NCBI GenBank assembly: GCA_963845085.1
Contig: CAWJQI010000005.1
Location: 1 to 64,000 of the forward strand
Source of the DNA: Candidatus Fermentibacterota bacterium
GTDB taxonomy: Bacteria > Fermentibacterota > Fermentibacteria > Fermentibacterales > JCC-6
Direction of reading: 5' to 3'
Length of the DNA: 64,000 nucleotides
Within the stretch, counting starts at the first letter, position 1. Each line of letters begins with the position of its first letter. A model generated the notes under the pieces. It was not told the origin of the DNA, ran no database searches, and was given only the letters and a program-made list of their open reading frames with translations. Of the stretch, positions 1 through 9,568 are shown piece after piece. The translations under genes and the position numbers were made by a program.

Positions 1-11
1 GACCAGCGGAG

Positions 12-224
12 TTATCCACCACTGGTCCCTCCACCTCCACACCGTCGAAGTTCTTCCAGGATAGTTGCAGCGGAGGCGAAGCCCGATTCCGAAAAGAACT
101 CGTTGTTGGATGCCCGCATGCCGATGATTGGAATGGTGTTCTCCCCGGGTTCCGCTGCGATGAGTGTGTGAACGGAGAGCAGCAATACGATGATGGCGGC
201 TGCAGTACGCTGAAGATTGGTCAT
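12..224 (-). CDS. Small putative exported protein, possibly truncated
   Basis: From the ATG at 224 (GGGAG upstream): MTNLQRTAAAIIVLLLSVHTLIAA resembles a signal peptide. The ORF stops early, near the window edge. Confidence 0.35.
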   Translation of the reverse strand: MTNLQRTAAAIIVLLLSVHTLIAAEPGENTIPIIGMRASNNEFFSESGFASAATILEELRRCGGGGTSGG

Positions 225-348
225 GACAAGACTCCCTTCAGGGTAGTGCTCTGAGAGAATAAACCTGACAAGCCAAATCACATACTTAGGGGTTTAAATG
301 TCAAGGAGCAGCATGACAGTAAACCAGGGCTGTGGTCGTCAACTTCCT

Positions 349-723
349 TCACGGTGCGAAAAGATTCGCCGGTTTGGCCACGACACTTCTGTGGTTCCTC
401 AGCCCCCTCTCCGTCACCAGCCTCCGCTCCCAGTAGTCCCCCATCGCCAGAACCCTTTCGATCTCAATCTTGGGCAGATCCAACAAGGATAACCACTGAG
501 TTACTCTGGCTCGGGACAAACCATGCCTTCTTGCCAGTTCAGCCCTGGAGATACCGTCTCGCTTCAGTTCTTCAACGAGTTCGAGAGCGATAACCATGGG
601 GTTGCGGAATATCTTCCTGGGTTTCGGCTCAGAAACAGCGGCTGGAAGGGTTCTGATGATTGTGAAATCAGGGGCTGAGAATTTCGAGCGGGTAGCGGAA
701 CGAGGCGCCAATCTTCTACCCAC
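349..723 (-). CDS. Small HTH protein, copy 1 (ParB/KorB-like HTH region); true start uncertain
   Basis: RNPMVIALE...GISRAELARRHGLSRARVTQWLSLLDLP...AMGDYWERRLVTERGLR. Paralogous to 1334-1570 and 2291-2903. Confidence 0.7.
   Translation of the reverse strand: MGRRLAPRSATRSKFSAPDFTIIRTLPAAVSEPKPRKIFRNPMVIALELVEELKRDGISRAELARRHGLSRARVTQWLSLLDLPKIEIERVLAMGDYWERRLVTERGLRNHRSVVAKPANLFAP
407..448. repeat. ~41-bp repeat within the HTH genes (copies at 407-448, 1410-1450, 2547-2588)
   Basis: ctctccgtcaccagcctcc(g/t)ctcccagta(g/a)tcccccatcgc occurs three times and encodes AMGDYWERRLVTER on the minus strand. Confidence 0.95.
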
Positions 724-762
724 TGGTTCATCACCATTAAGGGGGGCACCCCCCGATCCTAA
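701..762. repeat. Conserved end sequence, copy A: CGAGGCGCCA core plus a 39-bp block containing G6-CA-C6
   Basis: 701-710 cgaggcgcca equals 2843-2852. 724-762 tggttcatcaccattaaggggggcaccccccgatcctaa matches 2878-2916 with one mismatch. Confidence 0.95.
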
Positions 763-843
763 TCACATAACACCTTGACGGGTGGACGTGTTTCTGGGGG
801 CAGGTCAGACAAGGGCGGAGTTTCGTTGATTCTCCACACAAGG

Positions 844-1206
844 TCAGATGTATGGGTTTCCCTTGTGTATTACAGTGCCCTTCAGGACCTGGCCGTTTAG
901 TGTAACCTCAATCCCAATCGGGATGAAGAAAAATTTCTTCAGGACGATATGAAGTTCCCCTGAAGAGGGAATCTGACACCGGAATCCCATAGGGGGTTTC
1001 AGTAGTTTAACATCACCGATCTGAAGGACGAACTCGATAGTGCCATAGTCCCGAACTCCGTGCCGGCCTCTTCCAGGATCAGGTTCAGTCTGCAGAAGAT
1101 CCCGGTCTGTGCGGTACACGGAGGCACCAGTTCGCTCCCCGACGATGTCCAGTAGTATTCTTGTATCAATCGCTCCCGAATCATCACGGAATTCATACAG
1201 CGGCAT
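844..1206 (-). CDS. Hypothetical protein (cargo between HTH copies)
   Basis: 120-aa ORF with AGGAGAG just upstream of the ATG. No family recognised. Confidence 0.6.
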   Translation of the reverse strand: MPLYEFRDDSGAIDTRILLDIVGERTGASVYRTDRDLLQTEPDPGRGRHGVRDYGTIEFVLQIGDVKLLKPPMGFRCQIPSSGELHIVLKKFFFIPIGIEVTLNGQVLKGTVIHKGNPYI

Positions 1207-1333
1207 AATCTCTCCTGACTGGTTCAGCCACTGGTGCTTGCACCCATATATAACACCTGTCAGGGTTTATTGGATCATTCTTATTGAATCTTGGGTTGTG
1301 CTGGGCGTGCTTGTTTCAATCCAATGTAATGAA

Positions 1334-1570
1334 CTATTCTTTGAAATGCTTCCGAAGCACTTTCTCGGTTTCTGCTTCATCATTCATGGGTTTGAGTTTC
1401 CTTAGTTTCCTCTCCGTCACCAGCCTCCGCTCCCAGTAATCCCCCATCGCTTCTATCTCCAGCAGCAAATCCCTGGGAAGGTTCAGAAGGTTCAGCTTCT
1501 GGGTAACCCTGGCCCGGGAGCAACCGAACCTCCTGGCAAGGTCTGCCCTGCTCAATCCTTCCAGCTCCAT
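1334..1570 (-). CDS. Small HTH protein, copy 2 (frame stays open upstream to ~1722)
   Basis: LSRADLARRFGCSRARVTQKLNLLNLP...AMGDYWERRLVTERKLR. Upstream in-frame codons read KKFRNPVIQAREIALA, which includes the conserved RNP motif, but contain no ATG/GTG/TTG start. Confidence 0.65.
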   Translation of the reverse strand: MELEGLSRADLARRFGCSRARVTQKLNLLNLPRDLLLEIEAMGDYWERRLVTERKLRKLKPMNDEAETEKVLRKHFKE

Positions 1571-1821
1571 TGCGAGAGCAATCTCCCTGGCCTGGATGAC
1601 CGGATTCCTGAACTTCTTGTGTTTTCTGCGTCTTACAAGTTGTTTATGATTTGTATAGTAGCAGATAATGGCTTGATATACTATAGAGATATCGGCATTA
1701 TATCCTATTATGTTATTTATTTGCTATCTATCATAGCCATATTATGCGATATTTTCTTTATCTTCTTCATTATAGTGTGTCTGCATTGTTTTCATTTGCT
1801 TCAGATCAATGTGTGGCTGAC

Positions 1822-1849
1822 TTGACTTGTGATAGGAATACTGTATACT
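1822..1849 (+). promoter_or_regulatory. Sigma70-like promoter for 1886-2449
   Basis: TTGACT-N16-TATACT in an AT-rich tract, with GGAGG before the ATG at 1886. Confidence 0.55.
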
Positions 1850-1885
1850 ATTAAAGGCTATTAGTAAATTTATTCGGAGGTTATC

Positions 1886-2449
1886 ATGAAGAATGTTATC
1901 CTCTGTCTCATCTGTTCAGCTGTAGTCGCATATTGTGATCAGACTGTCTGGAGTTACGATCTTACTCAATTGCCTGATGGTTGGAGCTATACCGGCGGGT
2001 GGCAGTTCGATTCAACCGGTGCTCATGTTTACATCCAGATTTGGTCCGACATTACCGGAACTAACAGTATTTACACCGAAACTCTTCTTATACCAGAGGG
2101 CACTGATTCCCTGACACTGTTTATTCCCCAGTTCGTCAGCGGAGGCTGTAATGATGGTTTTGCGATTGCCAGGGTGAAGGTCACTCTGAACGGCGGCGCA
2201 TCACAGACAGTGTGGGAGGAAGTCTGGTATGATTCTTTTGGCGAAAACTCCGATCCCATAACTGTGGGTCTGGATGTTTCACCCGGAGACTCACTCTCCT
2301 TTTACTTCGGGTGTGATGTATGTGTTGTGGGAAGCTATGGAGTAGGGAACATTTTCTGGAATCTGTGGGATCTTGAGCTTGTGCTGCATGGCGATATTCA
2401 ACCATTGCCTGCGGTAACCTGGGGTGAGATAAAGTCCTGTTTTCAATAG
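1886..2449 (+). CDS. Secreted beta-rich protein with C-terminal TWGEIK motif
   Basis: Strong RBS, signal-peptide-like MKNVILCLICSAVVAYC, ends LPAVTWGEIKSCFQ. Confidence 0.8.
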   Translation: MKNVILCLICSAVVAYCDQTVWSYDLTQLPDGWSYTGGWQFDSTGAHVYIQIWSDITGTNSIYTETLLIPEGTDSLTLFIPQFVSGGCNDGFAIARVKVTLNGGASQTVWEEVWYDSFGENSDPITVGLDVSPGDSLSFYFGCDVCVVGSYGVGNIFWNLWDLELVLHGDIQPLPAVTWGEIKSCFQ

Positions 2450-2903
2450 CCTCCCTTTAAGCGCCGGAGGCAAACGCAGGACGAGTGGTTTCTGCCGCTT
2501 CATATCGCATGCAGTCAATTTCCCTTGATACTGCTCTCGCAGTTTTCTCTCCGTCACCAGCCTCCTCTCCCAGTAATCCCCCATCGCCTGAACCCTTTCG
2601 ATCTCAAGCTTTGGAAGGTCCAACAGGAATAACCACTGAGTAACCCTGACCCTGAGACATCCCGTGCCTCCGTGCAAGCTCTGCCTGGGACAATCTATGC
2701 CTATGAAGTTCTTCCTTCAATTCCATCGCGAGCACTATTGGATTGCGGTAAAAACGTGGTTTCTCGCGATTTGTAGCTGGTGAAGAAGCCAGATAAACAT
2801 AGGGGTAAGAACTGCTCAAATGGGTTCGTCCTGATACAGAACCGAGGCGCCAATTCGCTACCCACTCGAAATCTCGGTGGTTCATCAGCATTAAGGGGGG
2901 CAC
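2291..2903 (-). pseudogene. HTH protein copy 3, frameshifted near 2655; ends uncertain
   Basis: RNPIVLAMELKEELHRHRLSQAELARRHGMS in one frame continues as RVRVTQWLFLLDLP...AMGDYWERRLVTERKLR in another (one extra base). Similarity to the other copies ends near 2540. Confidence 0.7.
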
Positions 2904-2916
2904 CCCCCGATCCTAA
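2843..2916. repeat. Conserved end sequence, copy B
   Basis: Same as 701-762, with a 12-bp insertion (tcgaaatctcgg) between the core and the 39-bp block. Confidence 0.95.
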
Positions 2917-3016
2917 GCAGATCATTTTGGGACGGTTTCAGGATCCTTACAACCTACGGATGAATCAAGTTCATAAATGCAGTTCATCTCTGTTCTTCAG
3001 ACAGCGACACCGTGAC

Positions 3017-3045
3017 TTGACCGCAGGTTCCTCTGATGCTATTAG
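3017..3045 (+). promoter_or_regulatory. Possible sigma70-like promoter for 3073-3705
   Basis: TTGACC-N17-TATTAG with an extended TG. Confidence 0.35.
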
Positions 3046-3072
3046 GTACGACATGAAGATTCGCGGTGAATT

Positions 3073-3705
3073 ATGTACTTTTGTCTTCTAGCCGCATCCT
3101 TTCTCCTGTCCCCGAACATGATGCTTCCGGTCTGGGATGATGTCCTGGTGACACAACCTTATCAGGGGTACTTCCCCGTGGTACTTTCTTGCGAAAGCGT
3201 CCCAGGCTACATGCTCGCAGAGGACTGCTACCCCACGATGGATTTTGTCCCATGCCAGGTGGATCTCTGGCTGGGATTCGATCCGCCGGGCACTGTGGAC
3301 ACATACAACTTTGGTTTTCAACTGGACGTATCGGGAGCACCTGAGGGTTTGTTCTTCTGGTACGGCGTTGAGGACGACGTGATCTTCGAGGACATAGGCC
3401 TCACATGGGGGGGTTACGATTTTTTCCACGCAATGATTACCATCGCCAATCCTCCGGTTCTGGCTGCGGGGCAGCCCTGCTGGTTCTGCTTCCAAGCGGT
3501 GAACAGCTCGTCTGTGGCATGTCTGGCTAACAACAATCAACCAGGTTGGAACAGCCAGTGCTTCTTTAGTGGCGACAACGGTGAATCGTGGCAGAGCAGC
3601 CAGTCCACCTGGGGCTCTCCGTTCGGGGTTTTCATCATAATCTCAGGCACAACCGGGCTGGAAAGGTCTACGTGGGGTTCGATTAAGGGAAGTTATAACT
3701 ACTAA
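3073..3705 (+). CDS. Secreted protein with C-terminal TWGSIK motif
   Basis: Short hydrophobic N-terminus, beta-rich body, ends GLERSTWGSIKGSYNY. Confidence 0.8.
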   Translation: MYFCLLAASFLLSPNMMLPVWDDVLVTQPYQGYFPVVLSCESVPGYMLAEDCYPTMDFVPCQVDLWLGFDPPGTVDTYNFGFQLDVSGAPEGLFFWYGVEDDVIFEDIGLTWGGYDFFHAMITIANPPVLAAGQPCWFCFQAVNSSSVACLANNNQPGWNSQCFFSGDNGESWQSSQSTWGSPFGVFIIISGTTGLERSTWGSIKGSYNY

Positions 3706-3740
3706 CACAAGGTGATCTCCACTCCTCCCTTCGGGACTGC

Positions 3741-3947
3741 ACAGCACCTGTTAGGGATGTCTGCCGTGAACTCGGGGTAAGCGAGTAGTCTTTCTATACC
3801 TGGAAGCGGAAGTACGGCTGGATGAGGATCAGCTAACTGCGTGTGCTTCGTCAGCTCCGTGACGATAACAGGCCGTTAAAACGGATCGTGGCTGAACTTA
3901 CCCTGGACAAGCACATCCTCCAGAAGGTTGCTTCAGACAAAGTCTGA
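3741..3947 (+). pseudogene. IS3 orfA fragment with in-frame stops
   Basis: PVRDVCRELGVSE*SFYTWKRKYG...S*LRVLRQLRDDNRPLKRIVAELTLDKHILQ; TAG at 3786 and TAA at 3834. Confidence 0.85.
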
Positions 3948-4016
3948 AGCCAGCCCGGAAGAAGGAGCTGGCCATGCAGATCATCGAGTGGTACGAGATC
4001 AAGCTGAGCCTGCCGG

Positions 4017-4478
4017 TTGATGGGATTGTCCCGTTCAGGCCTCTACAAGAAGAGCAGGGTGAAGGATCGGACGGCGTTTAGGCTTCGTCTTCGGGAACTG
4101 GCCTTGAGTCGTGTCCGGTACGGGTTCCTGAGGTTGACGGTTCTTCTCAGGCGGGAAGGGTGGCCAGTTGGCAAGAAGCTGGTGTACAAGATCTACACCC
4201 AGATGGGCCTCACATTGCATTCCAAGCGCGGCAGGAAGCTGGCCAGGCGCGGGAGGATATCAAAGCCGCCTTCTGCGGAGTCGCCCAACCAGAGATGGTG
4301 TATGGACTTCGTGACCGAGCGGTTCGAGAACGGCCGCTACTTCAGGATCCTGACGTTGATGGACCAGTACACGCGGGAGTGCCTGACGTTGGAGCCGGGG
4401 ATCTCCATGAGCGGAACGAAGGTGGCCCACTGTCTGAATGACGTGGTATTCATCAGGGGAGCTCCGGAATCGGTGACC
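4017..4478 (+). pseudogene. IS3 orfB transposase fragment, truncated within the DDE core
   Basis: RYGFLRLTVLLRREGW; PNQRWCMDFV...FRILTLMDQYTRECL...RGAPESVT, then the homology stops before the expected DNGxEF. Confidence 0.85.
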
Positions 4479-4634
4479 ATGCAGGATCGCAATGATCTGC
4501 GTTTCCACAAACCTGGATTGTTTCATCCCGACCTCCTGGGTTGGCAGGAAGTCTCACTCCAACAAATGTCCCCTAAACGGGGGAGCCTATAACGAAGCGT
4601 CTCCAACCACAGGCAAAACTGGAATTGTTCCGCT

Positions 4635-4663
4635 TTGACAATGCAGGTCAACGGTTCTATGCT
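4635..4663 (+). promoter_or_regulatory. Sigma70-like promoter
   Basis: TTGACA-N17-TATGCT upstream of 4742. Confidence 0.55.
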
Positions 4664-4741
4664 TCTCCTTCGGCACGGGCGAAGGTGTGAGACTGACTTG
4701 TAAATGCAATACTTACGGTCCAGGAGCACCCTGCATAAGCC

Positions 4742-6688
4742 ATGAAATTCGAAGACACGCTAAGCAAAAGCTTTGTAATGCTCGATCCCGAAGCCCGCAC
4801 GGCCCGGGAACTTTTCCGGGCTTTCGCTGCACTTCTCCACGAAAAGGGTGTCATAGAGGACGAGGACGGATTCGTTTCCGAACTCATTGCAAGCGAGTCG
4901 ATGGGTTCGACCGGGATCGGACAGGGAATAGCCCTTCCGCATCTCATGATGGACGAACTGGACCAGAGCCATATCCTTATCGCCCGGGTAAAAACCGGTA
5001 TTCCTTTCAATTCTCTGGACGGACAACCGGCAAAACTCATCATTCTTCTGCTGTCGGCGAAAAAACAACGGGCGGAGTACCTTAAGAACCTCGCCCGAGT
5101 CGCAAAGGTCCTGCAGCGAGAACATGTCATCGACCGGATCATGGAAACACCCGATCCGGTATCGGTGGTTTCAATTGTCTGCTCGAAGCACAGGGCAACA
5201 TATCTCCGAACTCACTCCCGGCTTCTCTACTTCTTTGCCACCGTCGCTGTAGTGTTCCTTCTCTTTGGACTCATATTGCCGAGAATCATGATCCCTGCCG
5301 ATGACGCCTCCGCCGTGGAGATGGGATACCTGAAATTCAACGAACCGCAATGGATCCAGAAACAGATCGTCGCAGCCGGTGTTTTTCTTGCCACCGTGAT
5401 CGGAACACTGCTGTTCTGGAAGCACCGTGTGGCCATCGCGGCATTCGGCCTTGGGATACTCCTTATGTCAGGAACGATGGACCTGGAGACGGCGGTCCAG
5501 TTCATGAACATCCCGACGATTCTCTTCCTGATCTCGATGATGGTAGTTATTTCCTATATGGGGTCTCTCGGCTTCTTCGAGTATGTAGTTTCCTGGATAG
5601 TTAAAAAGACCGGCCCTTATCCTCGAAGGATATTCCTGGTTCTGATGCTGTCAGCTGGCGTTCTCGGCGGCCTCGTCAACGAGGTTACGGCCATTTTCAT
5701 TGCGGTGGCAATAGGGATTACCATATGCAATGAAATGAACCTGAATCCCTTCCCCTTCGTGATCGGGCTTGTTTTTGCAACGAACACTGCATCGGCCCTG
5801 ACCATGATAGGCAACCCCATCGGCATCTACATCGCCTTTGCCGGGGGGCTCTCTTTCGGGGATTTCCTGCGATGGGCGACACCCATCTCCCTTGTGATCG
5901 TGCTGATCATTTCGGGTCTATTGCTCCTGCTCTTCCGCAGGCAGATACCGGCGCATGCAAAAGCCAGGTCGGAGGAGCTGATTCCGGCCGGACCCGAGGT
6001 GAATCTGGACAGGGTGAGGGTCAGTGGCATCCTGTTCATTCTTCTCATCCTCTTCATAGGGTTTTCCAAGCAGATCGACGATTTGCTGGGACTTCTGCCG
6101 AACACGAGCATTGTCGCCATTCCGATCGCATTTGCCGGTCTTGTCATCTTCATGGCACGGGACAGGGGAAAAATGCTTATCGAGGATGGTGTGGACTGGT
6201 GGGCGATACTTTTCTTCATGTTCCTGTTCGCGAAGGCAGCCTGCCTTGAGTACACGGGGGTGACACCCAAAATCGCCTACCAGATCCTCTCGTTCGCCAA
6301 CAGTTCTCAGGCCGGCCTCTTCGGCGCAGCTTACAGCGTCACGATCGTGGCGCTCATAATAATCACTGTCTTCACTGCGCTTGCTTCCGGTTTCGCCGAC
6401 AACCTGCCCATCATCGCCGCCCTTGTTCCCGTCATTAAGACCCTGGAGATCGCCGGCCTTCCACACTCTTCAATACTCTGGTGGGGTCTGCTCTTCGGCG
6501 GGTGTCTGGGAGGCAACCTGACGATGATAGGCTCTTCAGCCAACATGGTTGCGCTGTCGATCTTCGAGAAATCCGAAGGCAAGCAGATCGGGTTCCTCAA
6601 GTGGCTCAAGTACGGGTTCCCGGTGGTTGTGATATCGCTTCTTGTTGCTTTGCTGCTTCTTGTTATTCAGATCGGTGTTGCACCCTGA
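4742..6688 (+). CDS. PTS EIIA (Fru/Ntr-type) domain fused to an ArsB/NhaD/SLC13-type ion transporter
   Basis: N-terminal STGIGQGIALPHL (phosphorylatable His). Many TM helices with ALTMIGNPIGI, ADNLP and GGNLTMIGSSAN motifs. Confidence 0.85.
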   Translation: MKFEDTLSKSFVMLDPEARTARELFRAFAALLHEKGVIEDEDGFVSELIASESMGSTGIGQGIALPHLMMDELDQSHILIARVKTGIPFNSLDGQPAKLIILLLSAKKQRAEYLKNLARVAKVLQREHVIDRIMETPDPVSVVSIVCSKHRATYLRTHSRLLYFFATVAVVFLLFGLILPRIMIPADDASAVEMGYLKFNEPQWIQKQIVAAGVFLATVIGTLLFWKHRVAIAAFGLGILLMSGTMDLETAVQFMNIPTILFLISMMVVISYMGSLGFFEYVVSWIVKKTGPYPRRIFLVLMLSAGVLGGLVNEVTAIFIAVAIGITICNEMNLNPFPFVIGLVFATNTASALTMIGNPIGIYIAFAGGLSFGDFLRWATPISLVIVLIISGLLLLLFRRQIPAHAKARSEELIPAGPEVNLDRVRVSGILFILLILFIGFSKQIDDLLGLLPNTSIVAIPIAFAGLVIFMARDRGKMLIEDGVDWWAILFFMFLFAKAACLEYTGVTPKIAYQILSFANSSQAGLFGAAYSVTIVALIIITVFTALASGFADNLPIIAALVPVIKTLEIAGLPHSSILWWGLLFGGCLGGNLTMIGSSANMVALSIFEKSEGKQIGFLKWLKYGFPVVVISLLVALLLLVIQIGVAP

Positions 6689-7594: not shown

Positions 7595-9445
7595 CTAATA
7601 CGGGCTCGATGCCGGCTCCCTGCGCCGTCTTGCGAGCAGGAAGATGTCCCGTAATGCCTGCTCGCCCCGGGCAGCCCGCCACATCTTCTCGAAGTTCTCC
7701 TGCTGAACCGTTTGGGCGATTGCCGCCAGGCTTCTGAGATGAAAGTTTCTTTCCCTCATGGAACCGGCAAGAAAAACCACGGCTTGAACCGATGATGCCT
7801 CCTCGCTGAAGCGCACACCATCAGAGCAGCGCACCATGAGAACTTCGAACGAGGACAACCCTTCGAGAACGAGATGCGGGATGGCAAGATGGGGGGAGAT
7901 TGCTGTCGAGCTTTGTTCCTCGTGTTCTGCCAGAAGCGATCGCACCTTCCCCGGATCAACACCCATGCGGGATCCAAGGATATCGGCTGCCAGCTTGAAA
8001 AGCTCCTCCTTCGAATGCGAACCCGCAAGGTCAAGAACCGGGCAGGATTCAATGAGGGAGTCGAACCGGTCCGTCTCAATCCCATCGCGCTCCCGGATGA
8101 TTTCCCTGAGTTCGCTTTCGAGCAATCCCGACACCAGCTCCCTGGAGGTCAGCCGTTGAACGACGTGAAGCAGTGCGGATTCATGCATCGCCCTGGATCT
8201 GCCGTAGAACCAGTAGATAAGAAAGCCGGATACTGCCAGCCCGGTGCTTATCAGAAAAGCCTCTTCCTGCATCTCGATCAGAATGAAGCCGAACCCGATG
8301 AGCCCGATGATCTGAAGCCACGGATAAAGCGGAGCGCGGTAAGTGGGCCGGTAGTTCTGAATACCGCTTTCCCGGAGGATGATCACTGAAACAAGCGAAA
8401 GCATGTTCGTAAGAATCAACCCAAGAGAGGCCGCTTCGACAAGAGTATGCAGATCAAGAAACTGCGGCAGGATGACAAGCAATCCTGTCAGAAGAATCGC
8501 TGCATGGGGGGTGCCTGACCTTGATCCGGAACGGCTGAGGATCGATGGAACAATACCGTCACGACTCAGGGCGAGAAGGTACCGCGATCCTGCCATAATG
8601 CCCGCATTTGCCGTTGTGAGGAAGGCGAGAGAGGCAGCCAGCCCGATGAGCAACACTCCCGTGCCGCCCATGAGCAATCCGGCTCCGTCCGATATGGGTG
8701 TGAGAGTTGCGGCAAGTGCCGAGGGATCTGAAATGCCAACCGTCACACCGACCATCAGCACGTAAAAAATGCTGATCAGCACCAGGGAAAGGATCATCCC
8801 ATGCGGGAGGGTCTTTCCGGGATCCCTCACTTCCTCCGCCATGCTTGCAACTTTGAGCAGACCACCGAAGGCTACAAAAACAAGCCCCGCAGTGGAAAAG
8901 ACCGATGTGAGCCCTCCCGGAGCGAAGTTCTCGAACCTGGAGATGTCAACTTCGGGGAGTCCCCTGACCACGAACAGGAGCATCAGCCCCAGCAGAACCA
9001 TGACAAGGGCAACCTGAAGCTTTGCCGCTTCCTTCACTCCGGCAAGGTTTATACCCACGAAGGCAATTCCGAGGAGTACCCCCGACAACCTCATGTCAAC
9101 ACCAAGGATTACCTGGATTAGGGCTGCCATGCCAACGAGCGCGAATGAGCTCTTGAGAGAAAATGAGACCCAGTTGAGAACACCGGCGATGGTCCCGAAT
9201 GCCGGGCCCACACTTCTTGTAATGAAGAAATAGTCGCTTCCCGCCCGGGGCATGGCAGTGGACAGCTCGGCCGTGCTGAGCAACCCTGTCGAAGCCAGCA
9301 TCGCGGCAAGTGCATACGACATGATGACGGCCGGCCCTGCCTGGGCGAAGGCCATGCCGGGCAGAACGAAAATCCCTGAACTTATCATCGCTCCGGAGGC
9401 GATGCAGAAGACATGGATCAAGCCAAGATTCCTGTGAAGCTGCAT
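7595..9445 (-). CDS. APC-family amino acid permease with C-terminal PTS EIIA domain
   Basis: LGLIHVFCIASGAMISSGIFVLPG; AEEVRDP; C-terminal STAISPHLAIPHL and NFHLRSLAAIA. Start moved to the ATG at 9445 (GGAG upstream). Confidence 0.85.
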   Translation of the reverse strand: MQLHRNLGLIHVFCIASGAMISSGIFVLPGMAFAQAGPAVIMSYALAAMLASTGLLSTAELSTAMPRAGSDYFFITRSVGPAFGTIAGVLNWVSFSLKSSFALVGMAALIQVILGVDMRLSGVLLGIAFVGINLAGVKEAAKLQVALVMVLLGLMLLFVVRGLPEVDISRFENFAPGGLTSVFSTAGLVFVAFGGLLKVASMAEEVRDPGKTLPHGMILSLVLISIFYVLMVGVTVGISDPSALAATLTPISDGAGLLMGGTGVLLIGLAASLAFLTTANAGIMAGSRYLLALSRDGIVPSILSRSGSRSGTPHAAILLTGLLVILPQFLDLHTLVEAASLGLILTNMLSLVSVIILRESGIQNYRPTYRAPLYPWLQIIGLIGFGFILIEMQEEAFLISTGLAVSGFLIYWFYGRSRAMHESALLHVVQRLTSRELVSGLLESELREIIRERDGIETDRFDSLIESCPVLDLAGSHSKEELFKLAADILGSRMGVDPGKVRSLLAEHEEQSSTAISPHLAIPHLVLEGLSSFEVLMVRCSDGVRFSEEASSVQAVVFLAGSMRERNFHLRSLAAIAQTVQQENFEKMWRAARGEQALRDIFLLARRRREPASSPY

Positions 9446-9568
9446 GCAGCGCTCCAATCATGGCAAGGTCGGAGTACGGCAGCCGGAAGGGTTTCTTCCT
9501 GTCGGAACATAGTCGATCACTTTCCCGAAGTGCCAGAGTTACGTGCAGTACAGCATCAGCGGGCCGTG

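Follow-up and report, generated by a model that had tools for sequence, protein, structure and literature searches.

What kind of element leaves behind, at the very start of a contig, three copies of a helix-turn-helix (HTH) coding sequence, two copies each of an end block and of a 10-bp core, and unrelated cargo genes between them? The question is raised by the first 64 kb of contig C5 of a Candidatus Fermentibacterota genome (G000; 88% complete, five contigs), and this whole stretch of 64,000 nucleotides (nt) is referred to here as the window. A first-pass annotation had tentatively read the array as small non-autonomous cassettes, mobilised in trans, that form an integron-like platform with one HTH gene per unit. 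Our analysis gives another answer: the array is probably a decayed tandem stack of integrative elements whose attachment (att) site attP lies inside the gene for their own large serine recombinase (LSR), so that insertion at tRNA-Asn likely severs a ParB/KorB-like HTH from the enzyme. The units in the window are probably dead and no longer mobile.

We re-read the layout from the sequence, and gene order and coordinates were as annotated. The end blocks (724-762 and 2878-2916) are identical in 38 of 39 bp, the core, CGAGGCGCCA, is located at 701 and at 2843, and the three HTH copies share a common 3' stretch with starts at 407, 1410 and 2547. Copy 2 has lost the core, which is replaced by a stretch of 30% GC, copy 3 is frameshifted, and an IS3 remnant follows at ~3750-4590. 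What had been called cargo at 12-224 is the broken 5' end of a gene of ~970 codons that runs off the contig; base 1 of the window is base 1 of C5, and the assembly holds nothing to its left. The window indeed lacks an integrase, as genome-wide searches with PF00589, PF00239 and PF07508 gave zero matches within C5:1-64000. It contains no tRNA genes, Rfam gave zero matches in window 1-5000, and in the related loci the same database returned just two unrelated tRNAs for nine flanks and nothing for 12 arrays.

By itself the core is within chance, with ~12 copies expected in the genome and eight present, four of which adjoin an HTH copy; its significance comes from its arms. The proposal that it is a tRNA acceptor end was confirmed in relatives: of six tRNA-Asn genes examined, four finish in the core and two in a variant of it, and in the variant lineage the HTH copies begin with the matching variant. 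None of the 40 tRNAs found in G000 finishes in the core, an observation that we considered as a refutation and set aside, since comparison with relatives revealed that the assembly lacks tRNA-Asn together with the region that in a sister genome lies upstream of it. It had also been suggested to look for a serine or tyrosine recombinase gene whose 3' end runs into the block at the core. Serine recombinase genes that run into the core are present in relatives, where a protein with Resolvase and Recombinase domains, absent from the window, is encoded at the element end. Among the fetched PF07508 loci 18 of 30 (16 of 28 within the order) overlap the 3' end of a tRNA or tmRNA on the opposite strand, and Asn-type LSR proteins terminate in W-R-L and a short tail read from the tRNA antisense. 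The LSR body in relatives lies behind the tRNA on the opposite strand with the HTH half at the far end of the element, and where the tRNA is in view (Asn, Arg-acg, Leu-caa) the HTH copies point towards it.

Reading phase, selection on the linker and fused forms identify the HTH as the severed 3' part of the recombinase gene, and the idea of one HTH gene per unit was not borne out. From 90 position-deduplicated HTH matches we kept 77 with the RNP anchor; the 13 truncated or frameshifted copies that were dropped include copy 3 of the window, which was checked by hand. A tRNA-end core lies 90-108 nt upstream in 63 of the 77; phase 0 accounts for 51 of these 63 and phase 1 for the other 12, with phase 2 unrepresented. 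In HTH half 1 of the window the core is 104 nt ahead of the RNP motif, the frame is open, and no start codon occurs between core and HTH. HTH-side and LSR-side arms are inverted repeats of each other. Eight of ten LSR arms tested have a partner in the same genome at 16-19 of 22 nt (medians 9-11), one has no same-genome copy and one a non-cognate copy only. In all eight pairs, both phase-1 enzymes included, the phase of the LSR arm agrees with that of the HTH arm. The arm of the subtype of HTH half 1 is likewise the inverted repeat of the arm of the tRNA-Asn LSR in G004, with identical phase.

The linker between core and HTH is under purifying selection at the protein level. In the 61 copies that fall into groups of three or more, stop codons are present in one copy in the HTH frame versus 49 and 42 copies in the other frames, and the ratio of nonsynonymous to synonymous polymorphism (pN/pS) is 0.32-0.44 versus 0.81-2.22 in the six groups with comparable pairs, these pairs not being independent. 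Two subtypes have no ATG, GTG or TTG in the linker (nine of nine and ten of ten copies). Furthermore, the att site lies inside a recombinase frame for which two C termini exist. P0102, the short form, reads GKW followed by a tRNA-derived tail of ~13 residues, whereas P0100 (G016, 654 residues; Resolvase, Recombinase and HTH_ParB domains) continues from the same tryptophan into the HTH, as does P0101 (678 residues); the two fusions share 58% identity in the LSR body and 72% in the tail. G016 also holds a whole element of ~29 kb, running from tRNA-Asn through LSR and cargo to the cognate HTH half, after which a second LSR is fused to that half. With the window HTH as query a weak search gave no longer homologs among 2152 candidates, and a later region search found three. 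A single-sequence fold of the fused protein was uninformative (predicted local distance difference test, pLDDT, 35.7), a complex prediction for LSR and HTH (score 0.12) gave no verdict and is used neither for nor against binding, and neither a cognate attP nor the fused tail turned up in metagenome scans.

The geometry of the sites is that of an LSR, with a short core, inverted-repeat arms and a shifted motif. In 60 of 63 P arms a CGAAC-like motif begins at position 25, and 10 of 11 P' arms have it at the mirror position, +15 counted from CCA. In five of five tRNAs it begins at position 20, where it is the T-loop. The A118/LI model, as outlined in the excerpt of PMC3783163, has the LSR motif lie 5 bp farther outward in attP than it does in attB, and positions 25 and 20 differ by this shift. 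We infer that the T-loop acts as the zinc-domain site of attB. The internal junctions had been described as attP-like junctions between tandem elements, and they are; at junction 1 the P' arm is cut, a longer arm being present in the copy of this junction in G005, and at junction 2 arms of different subtypes are joined.

The end block, in contrast to the first reading, is not the end of an integrative element. In G001 an intact insertion sequence (IS) of the ISL3 family (1296 bp; PF01610, 206 bits; DDE_Tnp_ISL3 and zinc-ribbon domains, terminal inverted repeats of ~40 bp) interrupts the tRNA-Asn LSR gene 18 bp behind the tRNA, and the block corresponds to the right end of this IS, with its terminal inverted repeat and the last transposase codons. 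The LSR's own tail, an integron attC and a terminator were considered for the block and are ruled out by the intact IS; the block folds into a small hairpin only. The right-end pattern has 21 genome-wide matches in six genomes, two of which are repeats in tandem and a further two of which probably represent a single site on overlapping contigs; all lie at most 81 bp, and 19 at most 50 bp, from a tRNA end or core, all share one orientation, and nine are directly behind an intact tRNA. The remnants are mostly 22-87 bp long, and in other families, too, right-end fragments occupy comparable places. ISL3 elements duplicate ~8 bp of their target; in the one copy compared, the intact one in G001, ~2-3 bp are repeated relative to the uninterrupted G005 gene. 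The literature searched holds nothing relevant on a placement of ISL3 elements directed at tRNA ends.

G005 carries a related array left of the same transporter gene, and the order of the cargo, which the first-pass annotation had proposed to compare between strains, differs. Window positions 408-1450 and 1410-2594 match G005 at 93-94%, with 2 kb extra between them in G005, and all four ends of these two blocks fall in a 45-bp stretch at the HTH 3' end that makes up 2% of the array DNA. Across the arrays of the genus, 20 block ends comprise none at the core, four in the HTH 3' stretch, two at IS ends, one at a contig end and 13 elsewhere. The module of IS end, spacer and gene at 2879-3748 has a 74% paralog directly behind tRNA-Glu(ttc) in G000, and its copies in sister genomes lie behind Arg- and Glu-type junctions; as this last module starts at the IS end and recurs behind such junctions, exchange through the shared IS end fits. 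Block ends, cut and mixed arms and the IS-end module together suggest that the array consists of relics reshuffled by homology rather than of live cassettes.

These data bear directly on the model of the first-pass annotation, according to which an LSR encoded elsewhere acts in trans to excise and re-insert small core-bounded, non-autonomous units, similar to integron cassettes. We consider this model unlikely. Small LSR-less units do exist in many genomes, intact LSRs of equal specificity are present in sister genomes, LSR-less tandem islands are known in Dehalococcoides from the excerpted account in PMC3146451, and recombinase-less units stand in tandem with related elements, as expected of cis-mobilisable elements. 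We keep the model at low odds because of an LSR-less 2.6-kb unit in G000, which is remote from any tRNA and flanked by a tRNA-Asn-like stub and a second core. However, a P' arm is recognisable and in register at just 8 of 55 junctions, the arms of the window and of the 2.6-kb unit are truncated or non-cognate rather than intact cognate sites on both sides, and no full-length LSR was found in G000, where the PF07508 matches are open reading frames (ORFs) of 225-231 residues outside the window. Moreover, exchange in the window breaks inside HTH copies and at no block end at the core, the repeated site at which integron cassettes would be swapped. Nor is there an IntI beside the array, PF00589 matches in G000 being confined to C5:554370, C4:65007 and C5:332856. 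Among 22 sequencing runs the best match shared 29% of the sequence words, and no RNA run was listed; contigs of 4 of these runs, from which the strain itself is absent, had no core-to-core joint among the joints listed, which speaks neither for nor against the model. The 2.6-kb unit (C4:411062-413664, L094; stub of 28 bp) is situated near a ribosomal protein operon; each of its P' arms is displaced by exactly 10 nt, an offset that recurs at a few junctions of G004, G005 and G007.

The distribution of the HTH is relevant to a second alternative. HTH matches were found in 30 of 41 genomes searched, nine of them in G000 and up to 20 in one genome, and in the fetched stretches the copies are arrayed at 1-3 kb spacing amid unrelated cargo. 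HTH_ParB is the family matched most often (22 of 54 members, best 1e-8), and a model of the domain (pLDDT 72.9) gave Noc, KorB and ParB as top Foldseek rows, all short of E 0.001. Outside the phylum a genome collection contains 533 loci of the HTH family, and of the best 80 of the 533, mostly from Planctomycetota, 74 are immediately preceded by a separate LSR gene, four have no LSR and two are too short. In 39 of 58 mapped pairs stop and start overlap by 4 nt, and the same pairing was seen in viral contigs at 19 of 40 loci inspected. As the pairing is common outside the phylum, the partnership of LSR and HTH appears to be old and its wiring across attP a local variant. In distant bacteria (L203, L208, L218 and others) the pair often follows tRNA-Asn(gtt) at 2.7-4.2 kb and on its strand, a layout unlike that seen at this tRNA in Fermentibacteria.

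The separate genes at distant loci would be expected if the HTH were an independent small gene, encoding a regulator or directionality factor beside attP, and its in-frame contact with the LSR incidental; an ATG in the linker of some subtypes, and L162, where the LSR stops shortly past a core-like W and the HTH has its own ORF, point the same way. We nevertheless judge this quite improbable, given the two startless subtypes whose linker is under purifying selection, a phase that follows the cognate LSR even in the shifted subtype, and two diverged natural fusions. It is very improbable that the ISL3 transposase, and not homologous recombination, carries modules of IS end and cargo between tRNA sites. 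Module 2879-3748 starts exactly at the IS end and recurs behind Glu-, Arg- and Asn-type junctions, and the IS is found behind many tRNAs, but no left end could be found behind such a module, the only ones being those of the intact G001 copy and one 47-bp footprint, and no ISL3 transposase was found in G000. A simple local duplication of an HTH gene with subsequent decay, for which tandem paralogous units in some arrays (G027, G021) might speak, is hardly credible, as the three window copies are three att subtypes, each with relatives in other genomes, and the identities of core (tRNA end) and block (IS end) already contradict it.

Several observations weigh against a stack of elements with a split recombinase gene. 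No core precedes 14 of the 77 anchored HTH copies, and an ATG is present in the linker of all 11 copies of the 99-nt group. For one LSR the best arm overall (18 of 22 nt) is that of a phase-0 copy of another family, its same-genome match (17) being the one that agreed. The in-frame fusion in G016 couples an LSR to the tail of its neighbour, with arms matching at 6 of 22 nt, and at a comparable junction in G024, where different subtypes meet, the frame is not kept. Because the copies are related to one another, as are the genomes, the counts overstate independence. In distant relatives the HTH is encoded by a gene of its own. Of ten blocks common to the genus arrays only the two window blocks end in the HTH stretch, and 13 of the 20 block ends coincide with none of the marked features. 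Neither a circle nor an empty site was observed. Finally, as the assembly lacks tRNA-Asn and G000 has Asn-type junctions at three unlinked places (the window, C1:45924 and C4:411-413 kb), the physical link of the window to the tRNA is by inference only; an attempt to place the window beside tRNA-Asn by synteny failed because the genes of its right-hand flank are arranged differently in five sister genomes.

For the decayed stack we propose the following course of events. The docking site lies within the recombinase gene itself, so that integration into the tRNA-Asn 3' end likely cuts the DNA-binding tail off the enzyme and would separate the last ~100 LSR codons, the HTH, from the catalytic body. 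The fused enzyme would be made from the excised circle or at tandem junctions, and the HTH would most likely bind DNA and gate activity or direction of the recombinase according to the free or integrated state. If the T-loop serves as the zinc-domain motif of attB, the tRNA end presumably stays usable and elements pile up. After insertion an ISL3 element may land just behind the core, and the LSR body and most of the IS would be deleted. HTH 3' stretch and IS right end would then likely act as homology islands for deletion, duplication and swaps of cargo between arrays.

Beyond this locus we tentatively suggest, with somewhat less than even confidence, a widespread class of tRNA-targeting LSRs with a built-in, recombination-gated control domain, the HTH being a separate, closely coupled partner gene in Planctomycetota and others and wired across attP in Fermentibacteria, along with an ISL3 lineage specialised on att sites. 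If so, directionality would be controlled by self-cutting of a gene and not by a separate factor, the enzyme carrying its HTH only when the element is free or stacked, and the specialised ISL3 would turn dead islands into homology-driven shuffling platforms for exported-protein genes.

The features of the array are collected in the table. The 30% GC stretch that replaces the core of HTH half 2 (window 1640-1885) lies upstream of the 187-residue gene, is common to G005 and is possibly a promoter region. The proteins encoded at 1886-2449 and 3073-3705 have a TWGxIK-type C-terminal tail that is frequent on exported proteins of these genomes, and further array cargo carries C-terminal domains similar to FlgD or to those of type IX secretion systems (T9SS). 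To the right of the array, 4742-6688 (CitMHS-type) and 7595-9457 (amino-acid permease) encode transporters, each fused to a domain similar to EIIA of the phosphotransferase system (PTS); the former was found in 6 of 41 genomes, every one in this genus.

Features of the array at the left end of the window.
Position	Strand	Feature	Evidence or remark
12..224	-	Broken 5' end of a gene for an exported protein of ~970 residues; cargo of the leftmost unit	tblastn with 974-residue G007 homolog, 81-188 at 75%; DNA match L039
349..709	-	HTH half 1, phase-1 subtype, with att arm, linker and ParB-like HTH from the 3' part of an LSR gene	Pfam HTH_28/HTH_ParB
682..700	-	P arm of att next to the HTH, with CGAAA at position 25 counted from the first core base	
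701..710	+	att core 1, last 10 nt of tRNA-Asn(gtt)	tRNA-Asn ends in G005, G016, G014, G024; also G001, G002
711..724	+	Truncated, mutated P' arm, last bases of the lost LSR gene, no motif at +15	
725..779	+	ISL3 right end, inverted repeat and last transposase codons (minus strand VKVLCD-stop)	92.7% over 55 bp to intact G001 IS
844..1206	-	Cargo, 120 residues, no Pfam/NCBIfam family	93% identical block in G005
1334..1690	-	HTH half 2, phase-0 subtype, decayed core and arm	1410-1450 is exchange breakpoint relative to G005
1886..2449	+	Cargo, 187-residue exported protein, TWGxIK-type tail, no family	94% identical block in G005
2531..2852	-	HTH half 3, another phase-0 subtype, begins WRL at core, frameshift inside HTH; att core 2 at 2843-2852	
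2853..2878	+	P' arm of the phase-1 LSR subtype, nearly full; the P arm to its left is not its cognate	Identical over 26 bp to G004 arm behind tRNA-Asn
2879..2919	+	Second ISL3 right-end remnant	
3073..3705	+	Cargo, 210-residue exported protein	Module of IS end, spacer and gene
3750..4590	+	IS3-family remnant with stops and frameshifts, right-hand close of the array	rve and HTH_21

Other loci of these genomes show related arrangements. A second array in G000 (C4:876000-889026) lies behind tRNA-Arg(acg) and contains three HTH halves starting with W-Y-A, an IS-end remnant and exported-protein cargo, with a PIN toxin-antitoxin pair nearby. The island at C1:30000-50000 (L095), in which the Asn-type junction 45924, a short resolvase ORF and apparent defence genes are found, is linked to no tRNA found. 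A tyrosine recombinase (C5:332856-333398, L082) adjoins the tmRNA gene. Tandem pairs of serine recombinases of a different subtype lie behind tRNA-Glu(ttc) (L103:15453-18724 and L104:8867-12062), and no HTH was seen at their far ends in the loci viewed. In G004 a conserved intergenic stretch of ~190 nt with a core-like end (L137:3033-3222, minus strand) serves as insertion site and has an 88% match at C4:218609-218798 of G000. It looks like a structured RNA, possibly 6S-like, and neither Rfam nor ARAGORN gave a match.

The window itself is a relic, and its interest lies in the system it exposes, the control of a recombinase by self-splitting. Short-tail and fused forms can be compared, which bears on how LSR elements without a known directionality factor control excision, and LSRs with a mapped attP aimed at tRNA ends are of use in genome engineering. 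The split gene also accounts for many startless HTH genes annotated near tRNAs in this phylum, and the remnants point to a tRNA-end-seeking ISL3. ISL3 elements share domains and ~40-bp repeats with those described here, which differ by a strong, oriented placement behind tRNA ends and cores, nearly always with the right end only. Integrons are arrays of small unrelated genes parted by repeats, with IntI and attC; the window has neither, its cargo lies in both orientations, and its repeats are gene halves and IS ends. Cis-mobilisable elements, as far as PMC3146451 was available in excerpt, resemble the window in that recombinase-less units are stacked at one site; they keep functional attL and attR, whereas most junctions here lost an arm to ISL3 insertion.

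In their Resolvase and Recombinase domains, inverted-repeat arms and 5-bp shift the Fermentibacteria enzymes are like canonical LSRs as portrayed in the excerpt of PMC3783163. The 2014 view in the excerpted Islander paper (PMC4383910) was that serine integrases are not known to target tRNA genes. Directionality factors of LSRs are, in the excerpts of PMC12286644 and bioRxiv 10.1101/2024.08.21.608926, separate proteins generally without a DNA-binding role, and engineered integrase-factor fusions favour excision; the Fermentibacteria HTH, in contrast, is part of the LSR gene. A conserved ParB-like HTH tail or partner of tRNA-targeting LSRs is not described in the literature searched, a set of excerpts from open papers that includes PMC12424338 and PMC12884075 and leaves subscription papers and supplements outside its scope.

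An att site within an integrase gene, on the other hand, is already known. On integration 112 residues of the Mx8 tyrosine integrase are replaced by 13 and activity drops, streptococcal integrative and conjugative elements (ICEs) at rumA have serine integrases whose gene contains att and whose C terminus is changed by integration (both from the excerpt of PMC4701971), and archaeal SSV-type integrases carry att inside their gene (excerpt of PMC5861418). Mx8 and SSV enzymes are tyrosine recombinases and the rumA ICEs target a protein gene, whereas the Fermentibacteria LSRs target a tRNA, and a swapped ParB-like tail on a tRNA-targeting LSR does not appear in the excerpted accounts of PMC4701971 and PMC5861418. 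A close likeness is to the ssrA islands of Dehalococcoides, which according to the excerpt of PMC3146451 are tandem islands at the tmRNA gene with the LSR DsiB on the reverse strand, overlapping attL by its 3' end. There the integration module comprises six genes and many islands lack it, and both systems combine tandem islands at an RNA gene, a reverse-strand LSR and LSR-less islands. In the authors' speculation a complete enzyme exists only on the circle or beside a neighbouring island, and a missing 3' fragment has been proposed for DsiB. Their account, as excerpted, includes no tail domain, whereas in Fermentibacteria the missing 3' part is a conserved HTH under selection for which fused forms exist, and this supplies the fragment at which the DsiB paper guessed.

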